The translations under genes were made by a program, and so were the position numbers. A stretch of DNA of 64,000 nt. Origin: Cyanobacteriota bacterium (lineage in GTDB: Bacteria > Cyanobacteriota > Vampirovibrionia > JBFMGH01). The stretch covers positions 22,209 to 86,208 of the forward strand of contig JBFMGH010000608.1 in NCBI GenBank assembly GCA_040752795.1. The letters are read 5' to 3'. Every line of letters starts with the position of its first letter. Within the stretch, counting starts at the first letter, position 1. Below the pieces are notes generated by a model. It had not been told where the DNA came from, did not search any database, and worked only from the letters and a program-made list of their open reading frames with translations. Positions 15,057-54,537 of the stretch are shown piece after piece.

Positions 15057-15581
15057 TTACATGCTTTTCTCTGTACGAACAACCTCTAATTAGCATTCTG
15101 GTTTGTTCTTTGGTTTTTATTTCTCCTTAATTATCTTTTGAGCATGTTTTCTGAGATATAATTAGAAGACTTAAATGCTATCTCATGATTTAAGAGTTGT
15201 AACCACCATGCAAAAACATTTCTTCCATGATTTATTTAAAAGTTGAACATGGGATTTTCTTTATTGCACATGTTGATACAATATCTTGATCATGCGAAAA
15301 CCATGTCTGACATGTGTTTTGACTATACAACATTTACGTTAATAATATTATAACATACTCAATATTTTGTTGTATACATGAAGTCTTTAGATCTTTTTAT
15401 GTTGCTTGAAAGGATCAGGTTTTAATTGTTTAGAACGTTTAAAAATCTTTCTGATTGTTTCTTTATCTTAAATAACTCAGTTTTAGAAGCTGCAGGTAGT
15501 TGTTTTATTGTCGTTCATCTAAATAAAACAGAAAGAACATTACGTTCTTTCTGTTTGTATCTTAATAAGTGTATATAAAAA

Positions 15582-16541: not shown

Positions 16542-16544
16542 TGT

Positions 16545-17459: not shown

Positions 17460-17476
17460 AATGATATATTATACTC

Positions 17477-19384: not shown

Positions 19385-19528
19385 GTTTATTCTGCTTATA
19401 CCTTATTGTTTCGCTATGATTGTTTTTCTTACATTTGTGCTTCTCAGTTTTGTGTAGTATATCACATTTAATAGAAGCAATTTGCATTGTATAGTTTATA
19501 AAATAAAGTTTTATTAATAATTACAGAG

Positions 19529-20713: not shown

Positions 20714-20730
20714 TTACTTATATTAATCCT

Positions 20731-20835
20731 TTATCTGAAAAGCAAAGGAAGTAACATTGCACTAACTGTCCACAGAATAAATGAAAGAGCTATTATTGCA
20801 ACAATAATTTTGCTATTTTTGCGTAAAAATTCCAT
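20731..20835 (-). CDS. Unlisted 34-aa single-TM small protein immediately upstream of the M23 peptidase gene
   Basis: Hand-translated from the minus strand as MEFLRKNSKIIVAIIALSFILWTVSAMLLPLLFR*. An AGGT lies 8 nt upstream of the ATG. The stop is 17 nt before the M23 start. It is below the 60-aa cutoff of the ORF track. Confidence 0.3.
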   Translation of the reverse strand: MEFLRKNSKIIVAIIALSFILWTVSAMLLPLLFR

Positions 20836-21097
20836 AGATTTTACCTATATGAAATTTCATTTGTCACTACAATTTCTTTATATTTTACCCTACATTTACC
20901 ATAATGAAAATTAATTGTTGAGTTTAATGAAATAGAAGTCTTTGAAGTTTTATAGGAAGTAGATTTAGCCCTGTTTTGAAATGTAAATTTAATTTATGAA
21001 TAAAAAAAGTTTGATCATGTTCAAAACATGTTCAAAACTTATTGCCAAAATGTAATCTTCTTTGTTTGTCGGGGTTTTTGTTTGTCGAAAAGTTCTG

Positions 21098-22165
21098 TCA
21101 AAAAATTTTAAAATTATTTTTAGGCCATATAACAGAATGAATTTTGCCTTTAATAAATTTTTTATCAACTTCAGACCATATTCTACTATCCTGGCAGGCA
21201 TTTCTATTATCTCCTAGTACGTAGTAGTAGTTTCTTGAGATAGTTTTTTCTTCACAATGTCTGGCCATCGTGCAAATAATATTGTTATCAGGTTCTTTTA
21301 TATATTTTTCTTCAATTTTTGTTTTGTTTAAGAGAATTCCTTTTTCTCTGTTTATTTCTATTGTATCGCCATTTTTAGCCAATAGTCTTCTTATATAGAC
21401 TAAATCGTTGTTTTTTATATCTTTAAAGAGGGTCTTAAATGGTAAATCGATTTGTCCGGGCCTTATAGGAGATTCCAGGTAAAGCAGGTCATCTTTTTGT
21501 GGTTTTTTAACCAGGCCAGATATTTTATCTACGACTACAAGGTTTCTTGAAAGAAGAGTGGGGCTCATATCTTTGTTAGAAACTAAAACAAAATCAACTA
21601 TTTCAAGACGCAAAGGAATAAAAGAGATATAAATAAGGGGATTAAGAACGATAAGAAAGAATATAAAGAGAGACAATAATAAGTTACTGCTTTTAATGTA
21701 GTCTTTATTTATTATAGACGCAAGTTTTTTTTTAATAATATAAAAAGAAGCAATTGTGCAGACAAAAGAAAAAACAACAAAAAGTAATCCTGTGTAGATG
21801 TTAAAAGTTAATGTGACAAATAGCCCAATAAATAAGCTTATCACTATTATATTTGCAGGCATAAATACGAGAAGACTACTTATAACGGTTGTTTCTTTCC
21901 TTGTTATATTGTTTGTTTTCTCCTTTGAATATGCGACTTTTAAAGCTAGTCCGCAGAAAATGTTATACAGCATGCCTATTGATGAGGAAAATAAAAATAA
22001 TAGAAAGATTTCTAGCCAGGAAATGTTTGAATAAATGTTGAAGACCTTACTTGTGGAGAGTAATATTGCATAGAAAATGGGTAGGCCAATAATGCAAAGA
22101 AAACAATGATAGCTTGAGCCTTTAAAAGTAAGGTTATTTATAAGTTTTTCTGTGTTGCTGGCCAT
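21098..22165 (-). CDS. lepB: Signal peptidase I (S26) with unusually long polytopic N-terminal extension
   Basis: 355 aa. The C-terminal half has S26 motifs (DMSPTL catalytic Ser region, KRLLAKNGDTI, GDNRNACQDSRIWS). The N-terminal half, about 170 aa, contains 5-6 TM helices. Confidence 0.75.
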   Translation of the reverse strand: MASNTEKLINNLTFKGSSYHCFLCIIGLPIFYAILLSTSKVFNIYSNISWLEIFLLFLFSSSIGMLYNIFCGLALKVAYSKEKTNNITRKETTVISSLLVFMPANIIVISLFIGLFVTLTFNIYTGLLFVVFSFVCTIASFYIIKKKLASIINKDYIKSSNLLLSLFIFFLIVLNPLIYISFIPLRLEIVDFVLVSNKDMSPTLLSRNLVVVDKISGLVKKPQKDDLLYLESPIRPGQIDLPFKTLFKDIKNNDLVYIRRLLAKNGDTIEINREKGILLNKTKIEEKYIKEPDNNIICTMARHCEEKTISRNYYYVLGDNRNACQDSRIWSEVDKKFIKGKIHSVIWPKNNFKIF

Positions 22166-23429: not shown

Positions 23430-24179
23430 TTATGTGTTTTTTAAACCTAAAACAAACCGGAGATTACTTATAATATTATTGTTGAAAATTTTGTTACCAG
23501 CTCCATAGCCAACGCTGATTATTTTATCCATGTCTGGCATGGCAGTACAATCTTCTGCTATTGTGCTTAATATAGCTGCACCTGTAGGCGTTAAGCATTC
23601 CTCTTTTATATTGGGGTTATTTTTTATATGAATATTATGATCTTTTAAAATTTGAAGGGTAGCAGGCGCAGGTATTGGTATATATCCATGCTGACAGTAG
23701 GCTTCACCAGAGCCTACTGGTAATGGGCTGATCGAGCAAATGTCAATATTTAGTGAGTTATAGCAAATACTAAATCCTACTATATCTATTATAGAATCTA
23801 TTGCTCCTATTTCATGAAAGTGAATGTCATCTATTGATTTGTTATGAATGTGTGCTTCTGCTTTTGCAAGTTTATAGAATATTTTTTTTGACAACTCTTT
23901 TGCTTTATTGTCTATATTAGAGCATTCTATTATATTACAAATACTTTTATAGCTTCTGTGATGGTTATCTAAGGTGTTGATAGATATGTCTATCTTGCAT
24001 GTGTTGATAGAACTTCTGTTAACATATGTTTTTTCAATTTTAAATGAATCGTTAGGGAGATCCAACTTAGCAAGTTCTTTTTTAAACCAGTCAAAATTAA
24101 TAGCATTATCAAGTAAAGCCCCTAATAACATGTCTCCGCTGGCCCCTGAATAGCAGTCAAAATAAGCGATGGTGATCAT
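23430..24179 (-). CDS. larC: LarC-family (DUF111) nickel-insertion protein, N-terminal domain only
   Basis: The protein begins MITIAYFDCYSGASGDMLLGALLD, the hallmark LarC/DUF111 N-terminus. It starts at the ATG at 24179 behind a GAGGT SD (the track ORF starts at 24218). It is about 249 aa, whereas full-length LarC is about 400 aa, so the C-terminal CTP-binding domain is absent. Confidence 0.6.
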   Translation of the reverse strand: MITIAYFDCYSGASGDMLLGALLDNAINFDWFKKELAKLDLPNDSFKIEKTYVNRSSINTCKIDISINTLDNHHRSYKSICNIIECSNIDNKAKELSKKIFYKLAKAEAHIHNKSIDDIHFHEIGAIDSIIDIVGFSICYNSLNIDICSISPLPVGSGEAYCQHGYIPIPAPATLQILKDHNIHIKNNPNIKEECLTPTGAAILSTIAEDCTAMPDMDKIISVGYGAGNKIFNNNIISNLRFVLGLKNT

Positions 24180-24418
24180 TTTATAATACCTCTGAAAGAA
24201 CCACTTTTTATGAAGCAATTTTAATTGAAAAACTTTTTAATCAAAAATAAAAATTTTAGCATTTTGATTCAATGATCTTATTTTACTTATTATCAACTAA
24301 GAAGTAGCATTCTATATGCTTTTTAAATAGGATAATATTTAGCAAATAATTTTATTTTGTGGTTAAACTGTATTGTAAATAGTTTTATGTTGATAAAAAT
24401 TCAAGAAAGGTTAAATAA

Positions 24419-41183: not shown

Positions 41184-41935
41184 TCTTTTGACTGTTTTAC
41201 TATTAATGAGGCAATAGTGCCAGCTCCATAACCATTGTCTATGTTAACAGTTGCTACGCATGATGTACAACTGTTAAGCATGGCCAATAATGGTGTTAGA
41301 CCATTAAAATTAGCGCCATATCCTTTTGAAGTAGGAATGGCTATTACGGGGCATGAGCTTATACCTCCAACAAGGCTGGCAAGGGCTCCTTCCATTCCTG
41401 CTGCAACCACTATTACACTTGCTTTCTGGATAATGTCAATGTGGCTAAAAAGTCTATGTGCTCCGGCAATACCACAGTCAAAAATGTGTTTTACGCAAAC
41501 ACCATTTGCTTTAATGGTTATTATTGCTTCGGTAGCTACAGGAATATCTGCTGTGCCGGCGGTTATGACTAGTGCATAATTTGAGCTTTGTTGTGCTGGA
41601 TACTCACCCCATTGTATTATTTTAGCCTCTTTTACATATTTTGCTTCTGATATTTCTTTTAACACTGCAGCAGCAGTCTTTTTATTTGCCCTGGTCGAGA
41701 GTACGATTGAATGATATTTTTTTAGTTCTTTCATAATATCGATTATTTGTTCTGGTGTTTTTCCCGGGCAGTAGACAGCTTCAGAAAACCCCTGCCTGAG
41801 GTGTCTGTGAGTATCAACTTTAGCAAAATCTATGTTTTTAAATGGGGCTGTTTTTATATAATTAACAACTTCTTCCTGATCAATATTATTATTTTTGTAG
41901 TCATTTAATAGCTTAATTAGTTCGTTAGTGTTCAT
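41180..41935 (-). CDS. larB: LarB-like PurE-family carboxylase (pyridinium-3,5-biscarboxylic acid mononucleotide synthase)
   Basis: 251 aa. The about 110-aa N-terminal extension (HRHLRQGFSEAVYCPGKT) and the PurE/AIR-carboxylase fold (VITAGTADIPVATEA) match the LarB architecture. It overlaps larE by 11 nt. Confidence 0.7.
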   Translation of the reverse strand: MNTNELIKLLNDYKNNNIDQEEVVNYIKTAPFKNIDFAKVDTHRHLRQGFSEAVYCPGKTPEQIIDIMKELKKYHSIVLSTRANKKTAAAVLKEISEAKYVKEAKIIQWGEYPAQQSSNYALVITAGTADIPVATEAIITIKANGVCVKHIFDCGIAGAHRLFSHIDIIQKASVIVVAAGMEGALASLVGGISSCPVIAIPTSKGYGANFNGLTPLLAMLNSCTSCVATVNIDNGYGAGTIASLIVKQSKD

Positions 41936-42737
41936 TATTTTCTAATATAACCTCATTTAGACTTCCTGTTCTATAACCTTGCAGGTCTAATACAACATAT
42001 GTATAACCAATTTCTTTTAATTTTTCTATTACAAGGTCAGCATGGAATGATACAAAATTAATAATCTTGCTTTTATCAACTTCTATACGGGCAAGATTGT
42101 TATGATGCCTTATCCTTACTGGCGAATAACCCAGCTCTTTAAGAAACTTTTCAGCATCAGAAATCATTTTAAGATTTTCAGGTGTTATTTTAATACCATA
42201 TGGTATTCTTGAGGCCAGGCATGGATTGGCTGGTTTGTTGCAGTTAGGCATATTAAGTTCTCTGGCAAGGCTATAGATCTCATTTTTGGTTATACCAGAC
42301 TCTAGTAGCGGGCTTTTTATACCCAGTGAATGAGCGTGCTTTAGCCCTGGTCTGTAATCTTGAAGATCATCAATATTGTCACCTGACGCAACATATCTAT
42401 AACCTTTTTGTTCTGCAATTTTAATAATCTGCTTAAAGCGAATATCTTTACACCATTTGCACTTGTCTTTTGGGTTGTTGGTAAATTCAACATATTTCAA
42501 CTCATCAGATTCAACTATAAGATGAGGCCATTTAAAAGTTTCGGCAATTTTTTTTGCTTCTTCTAATTCTGCAGTGGTGATGGTTTCTGAATTTGCTGTT
42601 ACGGCAAGAAATTTGTCCTGTAATACTAAATGTGCAAAATAGCACAGAATAGTACTGTCAACACCACCCGAGAAGCCAACAATAACTGATTCATATGATT
42701 TTAAGATCTCTTTTAACTTTTTAATTTTTTCTTCCAT
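41925..42737 (-). CDS. larE: LarE-like PP-loop ATP pyrophosphatase (sulfur-insertion protein)
   Basis: 270 aa. It has the PP-loop GFSGGVDST, the conserved Cys region NKPANPCLASRIPYG and a length typical of LarE (TIGR00268). Confidence 0.7.
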   Translation of the reverse strand: MEEKIKKLKEILKSYESVIVGFSGGVDSTILCYFAHLVLQDKFLAVTANSETITTAELEEAKKIAETFKWPHLIVESDELKYVEFTNNPKDKCKWCKDIRFKQIIKIAEQKGYRYVASGDNIDDLQDYRPGLKHAHSLGIKSPLLESGITKNEIYSLARELNMPNCNKPANPCLASRIPYGIKITPENLKMISDAEKFLKELGYSPVRIRHHNNLARIEVDKSKIINFVSFHADLVIEKLKEIGYTYVVLDLQGYRTGSLNEVILENNEH

Positions 42738-44634
42738 TTTTTTTATTCCAGATATACCTTTTTGCCTGTAAAAGTTTTGTAATTCTATTCATTTCGAGTA
42801 CAAGATAAACAAAGGGGTTTATAATATTATGGACTCTTTTAGCTGTTAGAAATTCTCCGTTTTCAGAACTGGTAGTCATATTAGCAAGTATATTAACAGC
42901 TGGGGGTCTGGCAGCATCTACAATACCGAAAATATACAGATCTGTTTTTTCGCCGTGAGCGTTATTGATTTTACCTTCAGCAATTTTCTGAGCTAACATA
43001 TTAAGAGCAGGTGACTCTGTAGTGGTTCTGCAGCTTGCATCATAAACTTCGTGGAATGGTTGATAATTGTTATTTACCTGTTTTATGGGTTCTGGTATGA
43101 ATTTTATTAGCCATGTTTTTGTTTCCAGTATTTCTTTTAGCCTTATAGCTAGTGGGTCATTAGGAGGGAGCTTGTATCCTGGTTTTTCTTTCATTCTTCT
43201 TTCTATTTCTTTTATTATTTCTTTTTCTTCTTCCTGAAGGCCTAATAGAATCTGTTTAATACACCCCCTTGTGGTTTGAACATCAACAACTTTTGGTATT
43301 TCAACGCAATGATTCCAGTCTGTAACAAGTATAATAATTCTATGGTTAAGGCTTTTATCCTTAATTAGCTCTCTATGTGCTATTCTTAGAGCTGTTTCAA
43401 TATCAGTGGTGTAGTCTTGGTTCTCTGTTAACTTAAAAGAATAGTTGATTGGGCCTCCGTCTCTATTTATTGCTTTTACATATTTTTTAAATTCTGTAAA
43501 AGCGTTGTTTTTATCAGGCCCTGTTGGTGGAAGTAAGTAAGATAGATCTGTAGAACCTGCAAAAGGTAGAAAACCTATCTTGAATATTTGAGAAGGGCCA
43601 GCCTCTTCTTTTTCCAGTAGGTTGGCAAAGGTATACAAACCACTTCTTACCATTTCAATTCTGGAAATAGCACTGTCTCCCCAGTTTATACTTTCTGTGC
43701 TTGCTAGAGCTGATAAAGCATTATTAAACTCTGTGAACCTTAAGTCTGCTATTTGTTTTGCTGCAGCCTGCCCCAGTGGGTGGCCAAAAAGTTTATCTAT
43801 TGGCATGTCAAATAGCATAGATGGTCTATATCTCTCGTCAAAATCTGTTTTTGGATTATCATATATGCTGCCAACTGCAAAATCATCTTCATTTTTGTAT
43901 TTCTGGTGTGGTGTTCCAAAAGTTCCGTCATAAGATACATCAACATTACAATTATTGTAAATATAATTTATAACCTTTTCGGGTGGTGTATTTTTTGCAA
44001 ATACGGGATATTTTTCTTTTGGGACTGTTTTTGTAGCCTCTTCGTTTGGATCAACAACAGCCAGTGGGTTATGGCCCCATCCATAGTTTGACATAGACAT
44101 TGAAGGTGTCATGTCTACAACAAACATTATTCCTATAGCTGGCTCTTCAAATTTTTTCTCAGGCTTTTGAATTAAAATTTTGCTACCTAACACAAGGCTT
44201 GGCTTTGGTACATCAATTTTAGGCATTTTATAGAAGACTTCCAGTGTTGCATCTATTAAATAATTTCCGTCTGGAAGAAGCCGCTCATTTTTTTTGGAGG
44301 AATATGAAACGTTGCGGAGTATCCATCTGTAGTGAATATTTGTTTTTTGATCTTTATAAATTTGAGTTTTTATTTCATAATCATTTTTTTGATTGAATAC
44401 ATTATATTCTTCTAAAACCCCGATAAATTCAGGGCTACTTCCAACAGCTTTTTCCATAAGGCTACTTGCTACAGCTCTTTCGTGGCTTAATAGTTTGCCT
44501 TCGGCACCGGACTGACCACTAGTACTGCCTCTGCTTATTACTATAATTGGTATAATAGCAAGTGAGATAATAAGTAAACTTATTGCCAGTTCAACCATGC
44601 TAAATCCAATATAACCGTTTCTCTTTATTGACAT
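42721..44634 (-). CDS. Modular type IV prepilin-like protein with von Willebrand A module
   Basis: 637 aa. The class III signal MSIKRNGYIG/FSMVELAISLLIISLAIIPIIV has the expected G-1, F+1 and E+5. The vWA MIDAS-like motifs are VVDMTPSMS and IIILVTDWN. Confidence 0.65.
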   Translation of the reverse strand: MSIKRNGYIGFSMVELAISLLIISLAIIPIIVISRGSTSGQSGAEGKLLSHERAVASSLMEKAVGSSPEFIGVLEEYNVFNQKNDYEIKTQIYKDQKTNIHYRWILRNVSYSSKKNERLLPDGNYLIDATLEVFYKMPKIDVPKPSLVLGSKILIQKPEKKFEEPAIGIMFVVDMTPSMSMSNYGWGHNPLAVVDPNEEATKTVPKEKYPVFAKNTPPEKVINYIYNNCNVDVSYDGTFGTPHQKYKNEDDFAVGSIYDNPKTDFDERYRPSMLFDMPIDKLFGHPLGQAAAKQIADLRFTEFNNALSALASTESINWGDSAISRIEMVRSGLYTFANLLEKEEAGPSQIFKIGFLPFAGSTDLSYLLPPTGPDKNNAFTEFKKYVKAINRDGGPINYSFKLTENQDYTTDIETALRIAHRELIKDKSLNHRIIILVTDWNHCVEIPKVVDVQTTRGCIKQILLGLQEEEKEIIKEIERRMKEKPGYKLPPNDPLAIRLKEILETKTWLIKFIPEPIKQVNNNYQPFHEVYDASCRTTTESPALNMLAQKIAEGKINNAHGEKTDLYIFGIVDAARPPAVNILANMTTSSENGEFLTAKRVHNIINPFVYLVLEMNRITKLLQAKRYIWNKKNGRKN

Positions 44635-44755
44635 TAGGTTTCCTTTGATAGTTTTGAAGTTTGATGTAAATTTTTATGGTAATTTAAATTTTACTACTAA
44701 AAGATTTAAAGTCTCTACCGACAACATGTTAAATGGTTAATTAAAGGAAAATTTT

Positions 44756-46024
44756 ATGATAAAAAGAACACAAAAAGGTGCTGGGGCGATAATCCTTACC
44801 GCATTTATTTTATCAGCGATTCTGGTAGGTGTAGCTGTTGTATTACAAATGAATAAATCAAAAGAAATAGAGCGTGTTGTTGCTACAGAATATAATTTAA
44901 AAACATATTATGTAGCACTAGCTGGTATAAATGAGTGTATAGCTTCAAGAATGGCACCAAGGTCAAATGTATTACTTAAAAGAAACGATGTTAATGATGT
45001 AAATAAAGATAAGTACGAAAGACTGGTTAACTCAGGTTATGTTTATGCGAATCCTTATGAACAAAACCAGTTTAAAACTATTGGTGAGTATACATATGTA
45101 TCATATGTTGTGGTCAAAGATGAAAACGGTCAATATAACATTGACGAATTCAATAATAATTGGAAAGATGAAAAATATCTTGTTTACAGTAAAGGGGTAA
45201 CGCAATTACCCGATGGTAGCAAGGATTCTGTTATTATTAAAACTATTTTTGACTTGAATCGCTTTGATAATGATACTTCTAATGCTGATGAAATAGAAGA
45301 ATTTAAGATAATTCCTCCATCTGATCCAGAAACAAAAATGGCAGAAGGTTTAATAGAAGAAACTAAAAAAGATAATGATCCACCAATGGTCAGAGAAATC
45401 AAATTTAATGACCTGATGGGCAGTGAAATTTCTCTTGGTTTGCACGATAAAAAAGATAAGGTTGAGATTGAGAATGTTGGGGTTAGAAGCAAGGTTGAAA
45501 TTATTTTTACTGAGCCAATAGATGCCAGGTTTCTTGAAGGTATTAATATTACCAATATTAAATCAGATAAACCTGTTGACACTGTTGAAAAAGTAGTATT
45601 ATCTCCAAAAAATACCGAGGTTGTTTTATTACCGCCAGAAAAATCTGATGGTAGAATTCTTGACTATGATACAACTTACAGGTTGGATATCTCTAAAGTG
45701 TCAGATTATAATGGCAACAGATTACCAGAAGGGCCTGAAATTATCTTTAAAACAGAATCTCCGTCTTATGAAGGGGTTGTTGTAAAAGAAGCTTTTGATG
45801 ATGGTTGTGGTGGTTGTACAGGCAAAGGAGTGGATGGAAGGCAGAAGGGCTCTGCGGGCACTGACTCTAATCCGTTTGGGAACCCTTTTCTGGGGTCTGG
45901 AGGGTTTGATTCAACAGGCTTTGGTGCATCTAATCAGTCTGGTTTTCAGAATACGGGGTCAGGTAATGCAGCCGGTCTTAATGCTCCTGTTGGTGTAACT
46001 CCTAAAAATATTGCCTCTCCATAG
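44756..46024 (+). CDS. Membrane-anchored surface protein with Ig-like (SbsA-type) domains and Gly-rich C-terminus
   Basis: 422 aa. It has an N-terminal signal anchor (GAGAIILTAFILSAILVGVAVVLQ) and an Ig-like segment (VEIIFTEPIDARFLEGINITN ... VVLSPKNTEVVLLP). The C-terminus is G/S/N-rich. It is divergent from the pilin gene, 121 bp away. Confidence 0.45.
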   Translation: MIKRTQKGAGAIILTAFILSAILVGVAVVLQMNKSKEIERVVATEYNLKTYYVALAGINECIASRMAPRSNVLLKRNDVNDVNKDKYERLVNSGYVYANPYEQNQFKTIGEYTYVSYVVVKDENGQYNIDEFNNNWKDEKYLVYSKGVTQLPDGSKDSVIIKTIFDLNRFDNDTSNADEIEEFKIIPPSDPETKMAEGLIEETKKDNDPPMVREIKFNDLMGSEISLGLHDKKDKVEIENVGVRSKVEIIFTEPIDARFLEGINITNIKSDKPVDTVEKVVLSPKNTEVVLLPPEKSDGRILDYDTTYRLDISKVSDYNGNRLPEGPEIIFKTESPSYEGVVVKEAFDDGCGGCTGKGVDGRQKGSAGTDSNPFGNPFLGSGGFDSTGFGASNQSGFQNTGSGNAAGLNAPVGVTPKNIASP

Positions 46025-47667: not shown

Positions 47668-49203
47668 ATGGAGAAAATTAAATTGGCCAAGCATTTGACA
47701 GATTTATTAGAGTTAAAAAATATAAAATATGATTTAATTAAAGCGGAAAATGATAATAACCCTTTAATAAACGCTATTTCGTATAATTCTAAGACTACAG
47801 AACCAGGTAATATATTTGTTTGTCTGGTAGGTGAAAATTTTGATGCACATAAATTTGTTGATGATGCAATATTAAAAGGTGCAGTGGCAGTTATAGCACA
47901 GAAAAATATTAAGGGGTTAAGTGTTCCTGTAGTAGTAGTAGAAAATACTGCTAAGGTAATGGCTGTAGTAGCTACAGAAATATATGATAATCCAAGCAAG
48001 AGAATAAGACTTATTGGTATAACAGGGACTAATGGTAAAACTACAGTCACACATCTTGTAGAAAAGATTCTTGAGAAAAATAAAAAGAAATGCGGTCTTA
48101 TCGGTACACTTGGCCATAGGTTTAAGAGTACTGATAAATATTTAAATAGTAAGCATACTACACCTCAAGCCCCTGAGTTGCAGTCTTATCTAGCAGAAAT
48201 GGTTGATCAGAAATTTGATTATACGGTTATGGAAGTTAGTTCGCATGCACTGGATTTACATAGAGTCCAGGATTGTCATTTTGCAGTGGCCCTCATAACA
48301 AATTTAACTCAGGATCATCTTGATTTTCATGTTACTATGGAGAACTATGCCAGTGCTAAATTAAAGTTATTCAGTCAATTGGCAGAGTCTGAGTTAGAGA
48401 ATAAAACTGCTATTATTAATATTGATGATAATTATGCCGGAAAATTTCTTGAAATAATACCTGATAACATAACTAAATTGACTTATGGTTTAGCTTCTGA
48501 TGCTGATATTCAAGCTGTTGATATTGAATATTCTGTCAATGGGACAGTTTTTACCTGTGTTGCACCTGAAAAAACATTTAAAGTAAACTTAAAATTAAAA
48601 GGACTATTTAGTGTTTATAATGCTTTATCTGCAATAAGTGTTTCTATAGCTGAAAAAGTTCCACCTGAGATAATATGTGAAGCGCTTGAAGAAATTGAGA
48701 ATATACCTGGCAGGTTTGAAACTGTATCAAGCAATCCTTTAATAATAGTAGACTACGCACATACACCAGATGGGTTATCTAATGTGCTAACAGCAGCAAG
48801 AAAACTAGTACCAGATGGTGGAGAATTAATAACATTATTTGGTTGTGGTGGGGATAGAGATCCTACAAAACGTCCTAAAATGGCTAAAATAGTCGAGGAT
48901 CTTTCAGATAAAATTATTGTTACCTCTGATAATCCAAGAACGGAAGACCCTCAACAAATTATAACAGACATATTAACAGGCATTAAAAGTCTGGGTTCAA
49001 GTCATGTTAAGGTTGAAATAGATAGAGCACTGGCGATTGAAATGGCTATTAAATCTGCAAAACCTGATGATGTAATTGTAGTTGCTGGCAAAGGTCATGA
49101 AGATTACCAGATATTAGCTGATAGAACAATTCATTTTGATGACAGGGAAGAAGTTAAAAAGGTAATTGAAAAATTGAATCTTGCTAAATCAATAAGCACT
49201 TAG
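47668..49203 (+). CDS. murE: UDP-N-acetylmuramoyl-L-alanyl-D-glutamate--2,6-diaminopimelate ligase
   Basis: 511 aa. It has the Mur ligase P-loop GITGTNGKTT and the DAP-specifying region DNPR (SDNPRTEDP). Confidence 0.9.
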   Translation: MEKIKLAKHLTDLLELKNIKYDLIKAENDNNPLINAISYNSKTTEPGNIFVCLVGENFDAHKFVDDAILKGAVAVIAQKNIKGLSVPVVVVENTAKVMAVVATEIYDNPSKRIRLIGITGTNGKTTVTHLVEKILEKNKKKCGLIGTLGHRFKSTDKYLNSKHTTPQAPELQSYLAEMVDQKFDYTVMEVSSHALDLHRVQDCHFAVALITNLTQDHLDFHVTMENYASAKLKLFSQLAESELENKTAIINIDDNYAGKFLEIIPDNITKLTYGLASDADIQAVDIEYSVNGTVFTCVAPEKTFKVNLKLKGLFSVYNALSAISVSIAEKVPPEIICEALEEIENIPGRFETVSSNPLIIVDYAHTPDGLSNVLTAARKLVPDGGELITLFGCGGDRDPTKRPKMAKIVEDLSDKIIVTSDNPRTEDPQQIITDILTGIKSLGSSHVKVEIDRALAIEMAIKSAKPDDVIVVAGKGHEDYQILADRTIHFDDREEVKKVIEKLNLAKSIST

Positions 49204-50345
49204 TTTTGATAGACCTTAACATTGTTTCTGCCATCATTTTTAGCTTCATATAATGCTATATCTGCCCTTTCAATTAATTCTTCAGGCGAATTAATGTTAT
49301 CTTTTGATTTTAATGTTGCTACGCCAGCAGATATTGTAATGGATTTAATGTTTTCATTGCTTCCTGCCCTGACTCTTGATTCAATTTTCCTTCTAATTGA
49401 TTCAGCAAGGTTTTTAGCCTGTTCTGAACTTAGTTTAGTTCCGATAATAACTATTTCTTCACCACCATATCTAGCAGCAACAATGTTCTTAGTGCATGCG
49501 TCAAGAATAATATTTGAAACCTGCTGTAATACCTGATCACCTATTTGATGCCCCAGTGTGTCATTGATATTTTTAAAGTGATCAATGTCAAGCATTATCA
49601 CAGATAAATAGTGGTTTCTAAGTTTTGCAAAGCTAAACTCGTTTTTAAGCCTTTCATTCATATATTTACGTGTTCTCAGTTTTGTTAAAGTGTCAGTAAT
49701 TATTTCTTTTTCCAGCTGGATATTTTTGTTCACCAGTTCAGCTTTTTCTCTATCTAAACGTTTAATTATTAAATTATAAGCTTCTTTTAAAGCATTATCT
49801 TTACGCTTAGAGGCTTTTTCATTTACAATTTCTTTTTTAAGATTTTCAATATTTCTTTTTACCCTATCTTTAGAGGTAATATCACTTTTGTCATGGCTTG
49901 TTTTACTGCTTGAACCAGATGAATTATCTGCTGTAAGCCTGTGGGCTTTTTGATGTTTATAAGATTTAGCATTTTTACCAATGCTTATAAATGCGTTTTC
50001 GTAATCAATTAATTTTGTTACGTAATATTCAAGAATACAACCAATTAGCACGCATAGTGCAAGAGTTGTCAGACTTGAGAATTCCAATAATCCACCTGTC
50101 TGTCTGATGAAAAATTCAGGGAAATATGCTTGAATTGATTCTGGTAAAAAGGGATTTATTGAGTTAAAAACGAAAGAAACAGGAAAGTTAATTATGTCAG
50201 TTAAGAAATACACAGGTTTTGAAATGTAAGCATAGTCAGGAACTCCAGTATGAATTCCATTGAACTTTAAAAATAACCTTGTTATAAACAGGGCAGATAG
50301 TGCAATATAGCTTAATTTAATTATTATTTTTAAAGTTTTAAACAT
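49200..50345 (-). CDS. Membrane-anchored diguanylate cyclase (GGDEF, active-site GGEEI)
   Basis: 381 aa. Two N-terminal TMs and a coiled coil precede a GGDEF domain with RYGGEEIVIIG. It is last in a four-gene minus-strand operon. Confidence 0.8.
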   Translation of the reverse strand: MFKTLKIIIKLSYIALSALFITRLFLKFNGIHTGVPDYAYISKPVYFLTDIINFPVSFVFNSINPFLPESIQAYFPEFFIRQTGGLLEFSSLTTLALCVLIGCILEYYVTKLIDYENAFISIGKNAKSYKHQKAHRLTADNSSGSSSKTSHDKSDITSKDRVKRNIENLKKEIVNEKASKRKDNALKEAYNLIIKRLDREKAELVNKNIQLEKEIITDTLTKLRTRKYMNERLKNEFSFAKLRNHYLSVIMLDIDHFKNINDTLGHQIGDQVLQQVSNIILDACTKNIVAARYGGEEIVIIGTKLSSEQAKNLAESIRRKIESRVRAGSNENIKSITISAGVATLKSKDNINSPEELIERADIALYEAKNDGRNNVKVYQN

Positions 50346-50349
50346 GTAA

Positions 50350-52032
50350 TTACAACTTAAATACTTTTTGTATTTCTGTAAAGCTAGTAAATCCTGATAT
50401 AACTTTATTTAACGCAATATCAAGCAGTGTTTTATGGCCAGAACTCTTCAGAAATGTATTTAGTTCATCTTCTGGTATGCCGTCATTAAATAGATTGATA
50501 GTTGTATCGTCCATATAAAAGACTTCAAAAATACCAGTTCTGCTTTTGAATCCAGTAGAATTGCAGTCTTTGCAGCCTTTTTCTTTAAAATATGTAATAT
50601 TTTCAGGAAGGTTGTATTTTTCGATTAACCTATTATCTATTTTATGTTCAATTTTACATTTATTGCAAAGTTTTCTGATTAATTTTTGATCAAATGTTGC
50701 ATTAACAATTTTACAAATGAGCTTGGGCTCAATACCATATTCTAAAAGGCGGTAAAGAATATTTGTAGCACTATCAGCTATTATTGATGTGATAATAAGC
50801 TGACCTGATAAAATCGATTTTACTATTAAATCAAGATTATCAAGGTTTGTTATTTCATCTATGTATAAAATATCAGGTTCTTGAAGAAAAACATTTTTTA
50901 AAGCTGTTTCAATATCAAAACTTTTAGATATGCTAAGCTGACTTTGATTAATTTTATCTATGTTGTACCTGATGGGAGATTCAATTGTCATTATATTTTT
51001 CTGTTCAGAATTGATAGACTCCAGTATAGAGTACATTGTTGTAGTTTGTCCTGATCCAAGTGGCCCTGCAGCAATTACAAGACCATTTTCTTTTGATATT
51101 CCACTTTTTAATAACTTTAATTGATCGTTATATAATCCAAGTAATTCGATATTAGGTGCTTTAGGAAAAATTTTAATAACAATTTTTTCTCCATAGTTTA
51201 TCGGATAAGTAGATACTCTTGCATTGATAATATCTTTACCAATATTTACTTCTAATCTGCCATGCTGCGGTAAATATTCTTCATTTATATCAAGGCCTGC
51301 GGCAGACTTGATTCTTGAAATGGGCTCGGGAGCCAGTAAAATTGGGAGGCTGCCCCTGCTATACAAAAGTCCGTCAATGCGAAATCTTACAATCATTTCA
51401 TCCTGTTGCGGGTCCATGTGTATTTCGGAGGCATTCTCATGTATAGCCTGATAAATTATGGCTCTTACAAGTCTATATACATTTACTTCGTCTGTATTGT
51501 CATCATTAAGCTCACTCTGCCAGTCAAATTTGGGTTTTTCCGGCCCTTTTTTAGTTGGTTCTATATTGTCAGAGTTAGCAGACTTAGTTTTATAATAATA
51601 GTTTATTGCGTGTGAAATGCTTCTTTCTGAGCAAATAACTGGTTCAACCTTATAGTTTGAACTTATATCAAGATTATTTAAGGCAAATAAATCTAAAGGA
51701 TCTGACATGGCAATGGTTAGAGTGTCTTCAATCTTAAATAGCGGTATTATCCTGTATTTAGTGGCCTCTTCAGAGCTTATTAGCCCTATGGAGCTGGAAT
51801 CTATAGTGTATTCATCAAGATTAACGTATGGGATATGAAGTTTTTTCTCCAGAAAATTAAGTAATTTCTCTTCATTTATAATATTATTTTGAATAAGAAT
51901 TTGCCCTAGGTTTGTTTGTTCGTTTCTTGAAAGGTCAATGGCATCAACGAGCTGGTTATAATCTAATAAACCTTCTCTAACCAGGTCATATTTGAGTTTA
52001 TCTATGGCCTTGTTTGTTATTTTATAATCCAT
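50350..52032 (-). CDS. GspE/PilB/MshE-family secretion-ATPase homologue with degenerate catalytic motifs (predicted pseudo-ATPase), MshEN-type N-domain retained
   Basis: 560 aa. The Walker A is GPLGSGQTT (Lys to Gln). The Asp box is IESPIRY (Asp to Ser). The Walker B is EPDILYIDEITN. The His box is ITSIIAD (His lost). The tetracysteine cluster CNKC ... CKDC is intact. The N-terminus has a T2SSE_N/MshEN-like motif LGQILIQNNIINEEKLLNFL. Confidence 0.75.
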   Translation of the reverse strand: MDYKITNKAIDKLKYDLVREGLLDYNQLVDAIDLSRNEQTNLGQILIQNNIINEEKLLNFLEKKLHIPYVNLDEYTIDSSSIGLISSEEATKYRIIPLFKIEDTLTIAMSDPLDLFALNNLDISSNYKVEPVICSERSISHAINYYYKTKSANSDNIEPTKKGPEKPKFDWQSELNDDNTDEVNVYRLVRAIIYQAIHENASEIHMDPQQDEMIVRFRIDGLLYSRGSLPILLAPEPISRIKSAAGLDINEEYLPQHGRLEVNIGKDIINARVSTYPINYGEKIVIKIFPKAPNIELLGLYNDQLKLLKSGISKENGLVIAAGPLGSGQTTTMYSILESINSEQKNIMTIESPIRYNIDKINQSQLSISKSFDIETALKNVFLQEPDILYIDEITNLDNLDLIVKSILSGQLIITSIIADSATNILYRLLEYGIEPKLICKIVNATFDQKLIRKLCNKCKIEHKIDNRLIEKYNLPENITYFKEKGCKDCNSTGFKSRTGIFEVFYMDDTTINLFNDGIPEDELNTFLKSSGHKTLLDIALNKVISGFTSFTEIQKVFKL

Positions 52033-52035
52033 AAC

Positions 52036-52407
52036 CTATGTTAACTCTAGGTACTTTTTAACTAACTTTGTTATAGTTTCAATATCAAAAGGCTTTGTAA
52101 TGTACTCGTTGGCGCCTGTTTCTTCTCCAATGATTTTATCTTCTTCCTGAGTTCTTGCTGTAACCATTAAAATAGGAATATGCTTGTATTTTGCATCGAA
52201 TTTTAAAAGCCTGCAAACCTTATATCCGTTGATTTTAGGTAACATTACGTCAAGAACAATTAAGTCAGGGTTCTGGGTTTTGGCTAAACTTAAGGCTTCT
52301 TCACCGTCATATGCAACAACACACTCTAAACCTTCACTTTCAAGAATGAATTGCAGTGTTTCTACGATATCCTTTTCGTCATCAACTATTAATACTTTTT
52401 TGCTCAT
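52036..52407 (-). CDS. Single-domain CheY-like response regulator
   Basis: 123 aa. It has the receiver acid pocket (VDDEKD), the phospho-acceptor D in LIVLDVMLP, and the conserved T and K (ILMVTA, ITKPF). Confidence 0.85.
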   Translation of the reverse strand: MSKKVLIVDDEKDIVETLQFILESEGLECVVAYDGEEALSLAKTQNPDLIVLDVMLPKINGYKVCRLLKFDAKYKHIPILMVTARTQEEDKIIGEETGANEYITKPFDIETITKLVKKYLELT

Positions 52408-52443
52408 TGTTGACCCTCAATACAGCTTACTATTTACTTTAAA

Positions 52444-54537
52444 TTAGCATTTTAGAATTGGTATTGTGCTTTTAAGGCTTAATTCAATAAGTTCTTCACT
52501 TACAATAGCGTCATCAGGATAAATAGCAATTCCTAAGGTTAAGTTAGATTGATTACTTTCACACATATCTTTCGAAAATTGCTTCTTGATTCTTTTTACT
52601 ACGTTTTTTGCAGCAAATTTATCAGTATTTGAAAGAACTATTTTGATTATATTATCTTCGATTAAAAACTTTGATTTATCATCTTTTCTAAAAATATTTA
52701 CAATTTTATTTGAAACTTCTTCCATAACGTCTTTGGAGTATTCATTATTGTTTTTTATAGAAATTAAAGCAAGGCAGGAGTGGTTTTGCTTGGATTGCTG
52801 GAGTTTACTATCAAGTTCTAATAAGAAAATACTTTCCTGTCTTGCTGTAGGTAATATTAAGCAGAATTTACTGCCCTTATTTAACTCACTTTCAACCCAT
52901 ATTTCTCCTCTATGAGCATCTACGAGCTGTTTGGTTATGGCCAGGCCTAGGCCTGTTCCACCTACTTCACGGCTAAGGGAGCTTTCAATCTGTTGGAACT
53001 TGTCGAATACTTTATGAATATCTTCTTTTGCTATGCCTACACCCGTATCTTCTATTGCTATCTTAAGATACTCACCTTTAATTTTCTGACCTGCTTTGAT
53101 GTTTATAGAAGCTGGATCTTTATAGAAAAGTGTGTCATCCAGATTGGATGCGTCAACTAACTCAAGTGTTACTTTAATCTTTCCTCCACTGTGGGTGAAT
53201 TTTATTGCGTTTGAAACAAGATTGGCAAAAATTTGTTCTAACTTAGTGCAGTCTCCATAGATTTTTGGGAAGTTATTCTCTGGAATATTTGTTTCAATAA
53301 AGATATTTTTAGGATCTGCTACTGGTTTAAAAGTTGATATAACCATATTTAGTGGCTCGGCAATATCCAGTTCTGCAAATTTATAATCCATTTTGCCAGC
53401 TTCAATTTTAGAAAGGTCAAGTAAGTCATTTATAATACTTGATAACCTATCAACGTTTCTTTTGGCATTAGAGAGAAATTTTTCCTGTATAGATGTTATA
53501 TCTCCGCCTTTTTTTGTTAAGATAATATCTATAGAGCTTTTGATTGCTGTAAGTGGTGTTCTAAGTTCATGAGAGACTATTGAAATGAATTCAGATTTTA
53601 ATTTTTCTAGTTTCTCCAGTTTTATATTTTTTTCTTTGATTTCTTCGTAAAGAATAGCACTCTCTAAAGGTAAAGAAACCTGTTTAACAACGGTCTGAAA
53701 GCAGGTTATATCTTCGCCGGTAAATTCTGTTTCTCTAATAATTTCAACGGCTCCAAATGGGTTATCTGCAACGTTTATAGATGAGAACAGGTAGTCTTTA
53801 TCTAATATGTCAAGAGTTAACGTTTCATCTGATTTTCTTATGTTTATTTCAACTTCTAAATCCTCGGGTGTTAAATCGTCTCGATCTTCTCCTGTGTTTT
53901 CAAGATAGTTTGTGAGAATTCTTTCTTTAAGTTTTTCAAGTAATTCTTCAGTAATACTTTTTGAAGAATTTATAATAAGAAGAGGTTTTCCTTCATCAAG
54001 CACTAGTGTGCAGCATAAAGAGTGCTTAAGGCTTTTTTCAAGTCCAGTGTTCATTATTTTTAGGAGTTTATTTTTATCTAATGTGCCGGCAAACTGTGAA
54101 GAAGTATTGTATAATACATTTAGCTGGTATAAACTCTTAGCTAATTCACTATTGTTGGTATATAGAATATCTAATAATTTTTTAATACGCAGATGTGCAT
54201 TGATTGTAGCAATCAAAATACTATCACTAAAAGGCTTGGTTATGTAACCATCTGCACCGGCTAATATCTCATCAGGAGAGGAGTCTTTATCTGTAAGTAA
54301 TAATATTTGTATGTCATTAGTTTGAGTATAGAATTTCAAGTTTTTGCATATATTTGATAGGTTATCCTTGACTACTGTGGCGTCTATTAGCACTATATCA
54401 GGTAAATTTTCGTTAGTTAGTGCAATTGCTTCATCGCCGTTTTTGGCTAATAGCACTTCGTAGCCAAACTCAGCCAGGAGATTATGAATTTTATCAGCTC
54501 TTTTTAAGTTGTTATCTACTAAAATAATTTTTGACAT
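52444..54537 (-). CDS. Hybrid sensor: N-terminal receiver, HisKA, HATPase_c, C-terminal degenerate GGDEF-like domain
   Basis: 697 aa. It has a receiver (ILVDNN ... VLIDATV ... ITKPF), an H-box SHELRTPLTAI, and G1/G2 boxes (EDTGVGI, GGTGLGLAI). The about 130-aa C-terminal tail aligns to the GGDEF fold (LTLGIAIYPDDA), but the GG(D/E)EF position is IEDNI. Confidence 0.75.
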   Translation of the reverse strand: MSKIILVDNNLKRADKIHNLLAEFGYEVLLAKNGDEAIALTNENLPDIVLIDATVVKDNLSNICKNLKFYTQTNDIQILLLTDKDSSPDEILAGADGYITKPFSDSILIATINAHLRIKKLLDILYTNNSELAKSLYQLNVLYNTSSQFAGTLDKNKLLKIMNTGLEKSLKHSLCCTLVLDEGKPLLIINSSKSITEELLEKLKERILTNYLENTGEDRDDLTPEDLEVEINIRKSDETLTLDILDKDYLFSSINVADNPFGAVEIIRETEFTGEDITCFQTVVKQVSLPLESAILYEEIKEKNIKLEKLEKLKSEFISIVSHELRTPLTAIKSSIDIILTKKGGDITSIQEKFLSNAKRNVDRLSSIINDLLDLSKIEAGKMDYKFAELDIAEPLNMVISTFKPVADPKNIFIETNIPENNFPKIYGDCTKLEQIFANLVSNAIKFTHSGGKIKVTLELVDASNLDDTLFYKDPASINIKAGQKIKGEYLKIAIEDTGVGIAKEDIHKVFDKFQQIESSLSREVGGTGLGLAITKQLVDAHRGEIWVESELNKGSKFCLILPTARQESIFLLELDSKLQQSKQNHSCLALISIKNNNEYSKDVMEEVSNKIVNIFRKDDKSKFLIEDNIIKIVLSNTDKFAAKNVVKRIKKQFSKDMCESNQSNLTLGIAIYPDDAIVSEELIELSLKSTIPILKC

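Follow-up and report, generated by a model that had tools for sequence, protein, structure and literature searches.

The window, by which we mean the whole 64-kb stretch of DNA analysed here, encodes a 637-aa protein that joins a prepilin-type N-terminus to a large vWA domain (henceforth the vWA-prepilin) and that probably serves as a modular minor pilin in a type IV filament, located at the filament tip together with the product of a divergently transcribed partner gene and adhesive in function; we put the probability of this reading at roughly 0.68. Most likely, the vWA-prepilin itself represents a type of protein that is already known. What is new is the partner gene, which had so far gone unnoticed and whose pairing with the vWA-prepilin gene is strict.

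The vWA-prepilin gene occupies exactly the position, strand and length that an earlier note on this DNA had claimed for it, and its 5' portion is organized as follows.

42721..44634, minus strand: vWA-prepilin gene, 637 aa, ATG start (ORF listing, exact-sequence look-up, homologues)
44605..44634, minus strand: codons of the leader peptide, aa 1-10, MSIKRNGYIG, ending at the putative prepilin-peptidase cleavage Gly (translation)
44533..44604, minus strand: alpha1-N segment (aa 11-34, FSMVELAISLLIISLAIIPIIVIS), which includes E15, the Glu+5, and a conserved proline, Pro29 (family alignment, AF2)

A Shine-Dalgarno sequence, AAGGAAA, lies 8 nt upstream of the gene, and exact-sequence look-up identifies the product as NCBI entry MEW5822353.1, 'hypothetical protein AB1782_19320'. 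In translation, the protein starts with a 10-aa basic leader (MSIKRNGYIG) with a terminal Gly, and continues as FSMVELAISLLIISLAIIPIIVIS, with Phe at +1 and Glu at +5. The class III signal peptide reported earlier (KRNGYIG, then FSMVEL, with Glu at +5) is borne out in all its elements, that is, a hydrophilic leader ending in Gly, some 20 hydrophobic residues and Glu at position 5 of the mature protein; the hydrophobic stretch measures 24 residues and AF2 places a helix at 13-34. When all six frames of the 64-kb window were scanned with a relaxed class-III motif, this site was the sole match. On the window protein alone, Pfam N_methyl (PF07963, IPR012902) scores E 0.037, or 14 bits against a cut-off of 21.2. 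Note that the window protein has Met at +3, where Leu is usual for N_methyl.

The vWA-prepilin family is small, comprising just 35 of 1.84 billion cluster representatives, and its named members all come from Melainabacteria/Vampirovibrionia. Across an alignment of 37 members, which are 21-95% identical, Gly-1 (Gly10), Glu+5 (E15) and the helix Pro+19 (P29) are invariant in 37/37. The positions around them vary within limits: +1 is F, L, I, V, M or G, +2 is S or T, +3 is L, M or I, and +6 is L, A, I, V, M or T and never Y or F. As with N_methyl, the Pfam VWA_2 score of the window protein alone (E 1.1e-3, 20 bits) remains below its curated cut-off, which stands at 27, but both assignments are rescued at the level of the family, where N_methyl is detected in 11 of the 37 members at E < 0.01 (best E 8.6e-6) and VWA in 26 (best 1.4e-12). 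One close homologue, P0004, carries a precomputed PF07963 match and the NCBI name 'prepilin-type N-terminal cleavage/methylation domain-containing protein'.

Beyond the leader, the protein is predicted to fold into a pilin module and a vWA domain, with the following parts.

44155..44604, minus strand: predicted pilin module, aa 11-160 (AF2 model, pLDDT about 75-90 there)
42739..44142, minus strand: vWA domain, aa 165-632, broken by two insertions (family profile, Pfam VWA, AF2 and Foldseek)
44101..44115, minus strand: MIDAS loop 1, D174-M-T176-P-S178, a DxTxS variant of DxSxS (family alignment, translation)
43405..43407, minus strand: MIDAS Thr410, invariant in 37/37
43318..43320, minus strand: MIDAS Asp439 in IIILVTDWNH, invariant in 37/37
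43675..44094, minus strand: insertion 1 (aa 181-320), which separates the MIDAS loop of the vWA domain from helix alpha1 (profile-to-SpaC alignment, AF2)
43099..43302, minus strand: insertion 2 (aa 445-512), an extended helical hairpin that follows the D439 strand (AF2, pLDDT 89-97)

In the AF2 model of the full protein (pLDDT 83, pTM 0.73), an N-terminal helix lies on a small sheet and is followed by a vWA fold. Residues 11-160 are predicted to adopt a pilin fold, with an extended alpha1 helix (13-34 and 42-64) packed on a three-stranded antiparallel sheet (101-108, 124-134 and 147-156); a profile of this module searched against the PDB returned pilins as its sole best matches, at non-significant E values of 0.1-0.9. 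As for the vWA module, which the earlier note had described as embedded and had proposed to check by structure prediction, the model recovers the fold and Foldseek agrees, but the module follows the pilin module on its C-terminal side and is in turn interrupted by an insertion of about 140 residues. In the PDB, the profile of the vWA-prepilin family hits SpaC at 9e-12, complement factor B at 6e-10 and Streptococcus sanguinis PilB (7b7p) at 5e-6. PilB, which had been named as a precedent, is indeed the closest solved structure, giving the best Foldseek PDB match (E 1.8e-5, 600 aligned columns, full length) ahead of SpaC and Mfa5.

Judged by its residues, the MIDAS of the vWA-prepilin is complete (D174, T176, S178, T410 and D439): the segments VVDMTPSMS and IIILVTDWN, from which the MIDAS had originally been suggested, are present, and T410 is the fifth residue. 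D174 is found in 37/37 family members; at position 176, 29 have S and 8 have T, at position 178, 36 have S and one has T, and distant relatives have the canonical TDGxP at the position of D439. The two insertions differ in distribution and in the confidence of the model. Insertion 1, over which the profile jumps from 194 to 337 while SpaC moves just from residue 119 to 125, holds a conserved D251 and a T263-x-x-D/N-E motif and is modelled with moderate confidence (pLDDT 53-94). Insertion 2, with AF2 helices at 453-483 and 494-510, is specific to the close clade and missing from the shorter distant relatives.

Turning to the other side of the divergent promoter region, the 121-bp spacer and the 422-aa Ig-like neighbour are both present as previously described.

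44756..46024, plus strand: partner gene, 422 aa (ORF, Pfam, AF2/Foldseek, homologues)
45389..45754, plus strand: Ig-like domain of the partner, a beta-sandwich covering aa 212-333 (Big_5 in Pfam, E 5e-5, exceeding the cut-off)
44635..44755, between the genes: divergent intergenic region, 121 bp, common to vWA-prepilin and partner (ORF listing)
44665..44709, between the genes: 45-bp conserved block, near-identical in the window, L001 and L002

The idea that this Ig-like protein is a partner of the vWA-prepilin, raised as a possibility in the earlier note, is strongly supported by gene order. In all ten loci that we read (the window, L001, L002, L008, L003/L004, L005, L006, L007, L009 and L010), a homologue of the partner stands head-to-head with the vWA-prepilin gene, and in six of them the other neighbours are unrelated. 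The pairing reaches distant relatives of about 22% identity; for the partner at L009, homology is given by hhalign at 100% probability (E 4e-46). Within the intergenic region, promoter-like hexamers occur on both strands at a frequency not above expectation (three found versus 1.8 in shuffled sequence). The 45-bp block is near-identical between the window, L001 and L002 despite an identity of only about 50% between the proteins on either side; it is unique within the window, and an exact 16-mer from it recurs in the intergenic regions of L001 and L002. The block is a candidate for a shared promoter or operator.

The partner itself begins with a basic stretch that runs to Gly8 and continues into a hydrophobic helix of about 22 residues without Glu at +5, followed by an alpha/beta domain (aa 45-205), the Big_5 domain (aa 212-333) and a disordered tail rich in G, S and N (aa 340-422). 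All 14 partner sequences have Gly8, and Glu occurs at +5 in none of them; Big_5 was found in four of seven partner homologues. At the level of pattern, the partner resembles GspK and PilX, which likewise have a basic leader, an invariant Gly, about 22 hydrophobic residues and no Glu5, and then a long helix with a beta-sheet and a bulky extra domain. However, neither sequence nor fold linked the partner to GspK, PilX or other pilins in searches of Pfam, NCBIfam, PDB sequences and Foldseek: besides Big_5 there was no Pfam or NCBIfam match at E <= 1, PilX_N included, no PDB sequence was matched, and Foldseek, applied to a mediocre model (pLDDT 66), matched only the Ig-like domain (to the Sap S-layer and TssM Ig-like domains, E about 7e-4). 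The pilin-like nature of the partner is a matter of pattern, then, and finds no support in any search run.

The earlier note had also stated that no assembly genes are adjacent to the vWA-prepilin, and screening about 45 ORFs of the window with Pfam, which returned no pilus assembly gene, confirms this for the window. Specifically, neither a prepilin peptidase nor an assembly ATPase, platform protein, secretin or major pilin is encoded in the 64 kb, and in related loci the same genes are absent within 10 kb of the pair, bar a Flp-like pilin in L010; two scans of GTDB genomes recovered no relative. A pil-locus arrangement of the PilB type was rejected, as the pair is an orphan in all ten loci read. 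The one pilus-type component nearby is degenerate, as its description as a pseudo-GspE had correctly implied.

50350-52032: PilB/GspE-like gene, degenerate (alignment with PilB 5ZFR)

Aligned with PilB 5ZFR, its Walker A motif reads GSGQTT (K to Q), its Asp box ESPIRY and its His box GQLIITSIIAD. We rejected it as a working GspE/PilB assembly ATPase because the Walker A lysine, the Asp box and the His box are not intact. Three orthologues have likewise degenerate motifs, while the MshEN domain and a tetracysteine motif are kept. Points that speak against a minor pilin include the lack of linked machinery, the pseudo-ATPase, the sub-threshold Pfam scores of the window protein itself and the non-significant profile of its pilin module.

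How does the pair compare with known systems? The view expressed in the earlier note that pilins with vWA modules are rare is contradicted by the literature: more than 1,200 modular pilins have been found, and pilin plus vWA ranks within the 15 commonest architectures (Raynaud et al. 2021, PMC8179133), and CpaL and TadG have the same layout (PMC11870444). S. sanguinis PilB is a tip adhesin that belongs to a PilABC tip complex, in which PilA lacks Glu5 (PMC8179133, PMC9934059) and PilC is a modular pilin with Ig and lectin modules (PMC9934059). The vWA-prepilin shares with PilB (7B7P/7BA2) a class III signal peptide with Glu5, a short pilin module, a C-terminal vWA domain and a five-residue MIDAS, and where PilB works at the tip with the Glu5-less PilA and the Ig-bearing PilC, we find here a partner that is both Glu5-less and Ig-containing. 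There are clear differences, too. Identity in the structural alignment is about 8% with a low TM-score (0.27-0.40), the vWA-prepilin is about 180 aa longer owing to the two vWA insertions, its MIDAS is DxTxS rather than DxSxS, its host is a diderm cyanobacterial relative rather than a firmicute, and its gene lies outside any pil locus in a conserved unit of two genes, not three.

CpaL of Caulobacter crescentus, which we compared by its published description, and TadG of Aggregatibacter resemble the vWA-prepilin in the order of modules, the presence of an insertion after the MIDAS and a length of about 630 aa. In CpaL, a pilin module is joined to a split vWA domain with a DxTxS MIDAS, and a position at the tip with two other minor pilins has been proposed, along with a possible role in adhesion or mechanosensing (PMC11870444). 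However, these proteins have a Tad-type N-terminus and are encoded in tad loci, whereas the N-terminus here is of the N_methyl type, with Glu+5 and no aromatic residue at +6, and the insertion of CpaL consists of two beta-rich domains where AF2 predicts a mixed, partly helical arm. Membership of TadG/CpaL was rejected, there being no G/xxxxE[YF] N-terminus, no TadE/Tad match and no adjacent tad genes.

A vWA domain at the tip of a type IV pilus, in the company of a Glu5-less capping subunit (PilX/GspK), is also known from PilY1/PilC with PilVWX/FimU (PMC8179133, PMC9934059). In contrast to that system, the pilin module here carries the vWA domain in the same polypeptide, and there is no four-pilin operon. 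PilY1, for its part, is no pilin: its signal is one for signal peptidase I, and its C-terminal part is a beta-propeller. The vWA-prepilin was rejected as a tip adhesin of this kind, as it has no Pfam match to the PilC/PilY1 beta-propeller, its model ends in vWA helices and its N-terminus is of the prepilin type. Finally, SpaC of Lactobacillus rhamnosus GG (6M48) is the best vWA profile match (E 9e-12) and the second-best fold match, and shares with the RrgA/EbpA-type proteins a tip-displayed vWA domain whose MIDAS is flanked by inserted arms, but all of these are sortase-linked LPXTG proteins without a pilin alpha1 helix.

The resemblance to CpaL raises the question of whether the filament is of another kind, so that the vWA-prepilin would be a minor subunit of a non-T4a system, either a Tad (T4c) tip subunit like TadG/CpaL or a subunit of a T2SS pseudopilus. 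Such a subunit would work in the same way, through prepilin processing, a position at the tip and display of the vWA domain, and only the machinery would differ. We consider this unlikely, even though the layout of CpaL is a close match, with the vWA domain split right after the DxTxS MIDAS loop and MIDAS residues D160, T162, S164, T470 and D515 (PMC11870444) facing D174, T176, S178, T410 and D439 here, where the insertion spans 181-320. Two observations point in the same direction: the distant locus L010 has a Flp/Fap-like pilin close to the pair (Pfam E 3e-6), and one of the 37 family members gives a weak Flp_Fap match. Yet that pilin is below the Pfam cut-off and present at just one of ten loci, none of the 37 members matches TadE or Tad in Pfam, the N-terminal motif is that of N_methyl (T4a/T2SS), namely G before F-S-L-I-E-[LAIV], without the Tad Tyr/Phe at +6, and neither T2SS nor Tad genes lie near any copy read.

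One might alternatively suppose that there is no filament at all, and that the vWA-prepilin is a BatA/BatB-like envelope vWA protein held in the inner membrane by an uncleaved signal-anchor, with a similarly anchored Ig-like neighbour in the periplasm or at the surface. That pilus genes are linked to the pair in no locus, that the partner has no detectable pilin homology and that the window protein scores below the N_methyl threshold would all fit such a model, as would the only NCBIfam match, a very weak one to BatB (E 0.11). But a plain anchor needs no invariant Gly-1, Glu+5 and helix Pro across proteins that are 21-26% identical. In addition, the region after the helix is predicted to be a pilin-like alpha/beta fold, the model as a whole best matches a genuine modular pilin, and the closest vWA relatives by profile, SpaC and PilB, are pilus tip adhesins; we regard a simple anchor as quite improbable. 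Even less can be said for a functional tie to the biosynthesis of the nickel-pincer cofactor, suggested by the adjacent genes for LarE (TIGR00268, 309 bits) and LarB (NF033503, 263 bits). The stop of the vWA-prepilin gene overlaps the larE start by 17 nt, L001, L002 and L008 have these genes in the same order, 2-12 nt apart, and the genes are probably co-transcribed. However, these loci are syntenic over their whole length and hence count as one observation, the genes downstream of the vWA-prepilin in all distant relatives (L003-L007, L009, L010) are unrelated to lar, LarC lies about 19 kb away and there is no biochemical rationale. The larBE adjacency noted earlier is real in the window but, being shared only by the close syntenic clade, carries no functional weight, and its absence from distant relatives effectively refutes the link.

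If the vWA-prepilin is a modular minor pilin, as we favour, the prepilin N-terminus and pilin module would serve as a carrier that inserts into the filament and to which the large vWA domain is fused. A prepilin peptidase encoded elsewhere in the genome would cut after Gly10, and Melainabacteria genomes have been reported to contain pilA, pilB, pilC, pilT and pilD (PMC5877343, PMC4451040). The mature protein, starting with Phe and bearing Glu+5, would then join the partner in the inner membrane, the latter (Gly, hydrophobic helix, no Glu+5) resembling capping subunits such as GspK, PilX and S. sanguinis PilA. A complex of the bulky vWA-prepilin and its partner should fit only at the filament tip, where it might prime assembly and display the vWA domain along with the Ig-like domain and tail of the partner for adhesion to a surface, host or prey. 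From its residues, the MIDAS would be expected to coordinate a divalent cation, either Mg2+ or Mn2+, by way of which it would engage an acidic group of the ligand.

Known priming complexes comprise three or four minor pilins, and the presence of only two genes here is a point against a tip complex. Going one step further, one could imagine that the pair is a self-contained two-gene 'tip cassette' of Vampirovibrionia/Melainabacteria, a minimal priming and adhesion complex that replaces the HIJK or PilABC sets, although we hold this extension to be rather doubtful. Such a cassette would consist of a Glu5-less Ig cap with a variable mucin-like or proline-rich tail and a single Glu5-bearing vWA pilin, would plug into machinery encoded elsewhere, and could set what epibiotic, predatory or gut-associated cells attach to.

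Modular pilins explain how simple type IV filaments acquire specific adhesive functions and, to our knowledge, very few have been studied, namely PilB and PilC in a firmicute and CpaL in Caulobacter. The family described here places the modular-pilin design in the non-photosynthetic sister lineage of Cyanobacteria, the Vampirovibrionia, which include algal predators and gut commensals. Public pipelines call the window copy and several of its relatives 'hypothetical', and the strictly co-inherited partner is unrecognised by databases. Were the vWA-prepilin merely a membrane-anchored vWA protein, the finding would be routine. If, on the other hand, the two proteins do form a tip complex of two subunits, no priming complex described so far would be simpler, and the pair would provide a handle on how Vampirovibrionia attach.

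The reading frame that the earlier note had singled out as a prepilin with an embedded vWA module is present as described, and beside it stands a divergently oriented gene for an Ig-like protein:

42721-44634, minus strand: vWA-prepilin gene, 637 aa, ATG start
44756-46024, plus strand: partner gene, 422 aa, divergent from the vWA-prepilin gene

The vWA-prepilin ATG is preceded, 8 nt upstream, by a Shine-Dalgarno-like AAGGAAA. The translated N-terminus, MSIKRNGYIG/FSMVELAISLLIISLAIIPIIVIS, begins with a basic, Gly-ended leader of 10 residues, followed by Phe at +1, Glu at +5 and a 24-residue hydrophobic stretch, and is the sole class-III site that a relaxed motif scan of all six frames finds in the window. 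Both MIDAS-like strings noticed earlier are in the translation, as D174-M-T176-P-S178 and as D439 in IIILVTDWN. NCBI holds an identical sequence on a 198-kb contig (MEW5822353.1, 'MAG: hypothetical protein AB1782_19320 [Cyanobacteriota bacterium]'), and an NCBIfam search with the protein gave nothing useful. Taken singly, it scores below the curated Pfam cut-offs for both modules (N_methyl: E 0.037, 14 bits against a cut-off of 21.2; VWA_2: E 1.1e-3, 20 bits against 27), and we therefore built the case on its relatives and on predicted structure.

Five close homologues (46-95% identity) were found by word-indexed protein search, one of which, from a Vampirovibrionia MAG, is named by NCBI a prepilin-type N-terminal cleavage/methylation domain protein. 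When 1.84 billion cluster representatives were searched exhaustively with phmmer, just 35 proteins reached E <= 1e-3, mostly 480-790 aa long and 21-31% identical; those with a name are called 'vWA domain-containing protein' and come from Melainabacteria or Cyanobacteriota MAGs. A profile search of the word-indexed database (A2) added only two unrelated vWA proteins, and scans of GTDB genomes with alignments of close-clade and distant-clade vWA-prepilins found no relatives. In the resulting alignment, the N-terminal pattern (a short basic leader, Gly, [F/L/I/V/M]-[S/T]-[L/M/I]-x-Glu and a hydrophobic helix) recurs in 37 of 37 sequences, with Gly-1, Glu+5 and the helix proline P29 invariant, which bears out the earlier identification of a class III signal peptide. 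The MIDAS residues D174, T410 and D439 are likewise invariant, S178 is kept in 36 of the 37, and at position 176 there are 29 sequences with S and 8 with T. Pfam recognises VWA in 26 family members (best 1.4e-12) and N_methyl in 11 (best 8.6e-6). One further member, the 732-aa P0043 (MEW5820473.1), lies outside the window and belongs to the P0013 cluster, whose representative shares ~22% identity with the window protein. The accession of P0043 falls in the same NCBI series as those of the window proteins, so that a second paralogue may exist in the same MAG.

The main rival reading is that the protein is merely a membrane-anchored vWA protein. We disfavour it because a plain anchor has no reason to fix a Gly, a buried Glu and a Pro across such divergence. 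Nothing else argues as strongly for a true prepilin signal at the N-terminus as these invariant residues do, and the predicted pilin module also speaks against a simple anchor. An AlphaFold2 model built from the 37-sequence alignment is usable (mean pLDDT 83, pTM 0.73). In it, the pilin module is predicted as an N-terminal helix (13-34, 42-64) packed on three antiparallel strands (101-108, 124-134, 147-156) and joined directly to vWA strand beta1 (167-174). The vWA fold, for which structure prediction had been proposed as a check, appears in the model interrupted by two predicted insertions, one at about 181-320 with moderate confidence and one, a confident helical hairpin at 453-510, confined to the close clade.

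Comparison with solved structures points the same way. The family profile matches solved vWA domains, best those of SpaC, the tip adhesin of sortase pili (9e-12), complement factor B (6e-10) and Streptococcus sanguinis PilB (5e-6); in its alignment with SpaC, an insertion of ~140 positions separates the DxSxS loop from helix alpha1. When the model was searched against the PDB with Foldseek, the top two matches were the PilB entries 7BA2 and 7B7P (E 1.8e-5 to 1.1e-4, probability 1.0, ~600 aligned columns), followed by SpaC, the Mfa5 vWF domain and vWF A1, with two minor pilins weakly matched lower in the list. TM-scores of these matches are low (0.27-0.40), as is expected because of the insertions and the free orientation between modules. 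A profile of the pilin module by itself has pilins as its best PDB hits, at non-significant E-values (0.1-0.9).

The most informative result of the analysis is the pairing with the divergent gene. In the close clade (L001, L002, L008) the entire neighbourhood is syntenic with the window, so that pairing there says little. The neighbours in distant relatives are all different, comprising riboflavin and flagellar genes in L003/L004, uvrB and surE in L005, and different genes again in L006, L007, L009 and L010. Each of these distant loci carries an unannotated gene for 399-711 aa head-to-head with its vWA-prepilin gene. These genes are homologous to the window partner, with which they share the invariant motif YY-A-AG--E--A-R--PR-N (for the L009 gene, hhalign gives a probability of 100%, E 4e-46), and three more pairs are implied by location on the same contig or by consecutive accessions. 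A profile search of the word-indexed protein database (A4) added close partner homologues only. What had been suggested as a possible partner is found beside the vWA-prepilin gene even where the surrounding genes are unrelated.

The partner opens with a basic stretch, an invariant Gly8 and ~22 hydrophobic residues, never with Glu at +5. Next, in a mediocre model (pLDDT 66) built from a 10-sequence alignment, come a predicted long helix and a beta-sheet domain. Its Ig-like sandwich is a Big_5 domain (Pfam E 5e-5) whose Foldseek matches are Sap and TssM Ig-like domains, and its tail is disordered and, in the window, G/S/N-rich. The tails of its homologues are hypervariable and of low complexity, being poly-proline in L003 (8276-9787) and made up of long Thr/Pro/Asn repeats (TNTYTPSNTYT...) with a Cys-rich knob at the end in L006 (234-2042) and L009 (178-2313). 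Such composition suggests that the variable tail may form an extended, possibly glycosylated stalk. The Glu5-less N-terminus of Gly and hydrophobic residues resembles that of the capping subunits GspK, PilX and S. sanguinis PilA (PMC9934059). Searches of Pfam, NCBIfam, PDB sequences and Foldseek found no pilin homology for the partner, and a PilX/GspK-type role is a pattern-level hypothesis only.

Between the two genes lie 121 bp, within which a 45-bp block (44665-44709) hardly differs between the window, L001 and L002, where the flanking proteins are only ~50% identical; the three have the exact 16-mer AATTTTACTACTAAAA in common. The block occurs once in the window, is consistent with a regulatory element shared by the two genes, and may serve them as operator or promoter. 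A promoter-consensus scan of the intergenic region yielded nothing above shuffled expectation.

On its other side, the vWA-prepilin gene meets larE and larB (41180-42737), whose identity we confirmed. Its stop codon overlaps the larE start by 17 nt (42721-42737), so that larE-larB probably share a transcript with the pilin gene. The adjacency that the earlier note reported is real, and we reject a functional tie because it is restricted to one close syntenic clade. A 262-aa frame with a LarC N-terminal (nickel-insertion) domain lies 19 kb away, at 23430-24218.

As had been claimed, no pilus assembly gene adjoins the pair: the 64-kb window contains none, nor a second prepilin, and is otherwise ordinary chromosome (gyrB, recF, dnaN, accA/D, grpE-dnaJ, queC, rsmH, murE and polysaccharide genes). 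Its one PilB/GspE homologue belongs to a conserved four-gene cluster (49200-54537):

49200-50345, minus strand: GGDEF cyclase
50350-52032, minus strand: PilB/GspE homologue, full-length alignment with true PilB (E 4e-95)
52036-52407, minus strand: single-domain response regulator
52444-54537, minus strand: hybrid histidine kinase

The homologue, rightly called a pseudo-GspE, has Gln for the Walker A Lys and degenerate Asp and His boxes, all three shared by its orthologues in L001, L002 and L008, and it retains a c-di-GMP-binding MshEN domain. Judged by these motifs and by its position between the kinase/response-regulator pair and the cyclase, it is a signalling pseudo-ATPase and not a motor for the vWA-prepilin, and the cluster looks like a c-di-GMP signalling module around it.

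Three other features of the window deserve mention. A 456-aa protein (38805-40175, plus strand) contains long low-complexity runs, rich in Ala and in Gln/Met (for example MQMFMQMFMQMMQMMMQMMGMG), as well as calcium loops like those of EF-hands and dockerins, and its orthologues in L002 and L008 have a precomputed PF26745 (SPM) match. A 635-aa protein (17477-19384, minus strand), between accD and an M23 peptidase gene, combines a signal peptide and a Lys/Glu-rich linker with a C-terminal region whose sequence resembles that of an outer-membrane beta-barrel; it has no Pfam match at E <= 1e-3. The genes dnaN-recF-DciA-gyrB lie on the minus strand (~13600-22000), and a cumulative GC-skew minimum at ~18-20 kb suggests a replication origin in or near that stretch.

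The best-supported reading is that the vWA-prepilin is a modular minor pilin. Its pilin module would act as a carrier inserted into a type IV filament and would there expose the vWA/MIDAS effector alongside the Glu5-less partner; the tip is the most plausible site. S. sanguinis PilB within the PilABC tip complex offers a parallel (PMC8179133, PMC9934059), CpaL/TadG of Tad pili have the same split vWA domain and DxTxS MIDAS (PMC11870444), and PilY1 with PilX is a looser parallel. The filament itself may be T4a, T2SS-like or Tad. The N-terminus is of N_methyl type and without the +6 aromatic residue of Tad pilins. A Gastranaerophilales genome is reported with pilA, pilB, pilC, pilT and pilD, and Vampirovibrio chlorellavorus with complete type IV pilus genes (PMC5877343, PMC4451040). 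Small pilin genes adjoin the pair in none of the distant loci, except in L010 (2275-2841, plus strand), where a gene with a sub-threshold Pfam match to Flp_Fap (E 3e-6) encodes a Flp/Fap-like pilin with a G/QSLVEY motif and a long Ser/Thr/Pro-rich tail. This gene lies ~580 bp past the end of the partner gene, with a 149-aa DUF4864-like gene in between, and hints that some organisms with the pair have Tad-type filaments.

To call vWA-bearing modular pilins rare, as the earlier note did, was an overstatement: Raynaud et al. counted >1,200 modular pilins, and pilin+vWA is one of the 15 commonest architectures in their count (PMC8179133), so that the vWA-prepilin belongs to an already known kind. 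Its own family is lineage-restricted and mostly unannotated. What is new here is a strictly conserved two-gene unit unlinked to machinery, along with the partner family itself. A more novel reading, in which the two proteins would make up a minimal two-subunit tip cassette, is plausible, although we consider it rather less likely than not.
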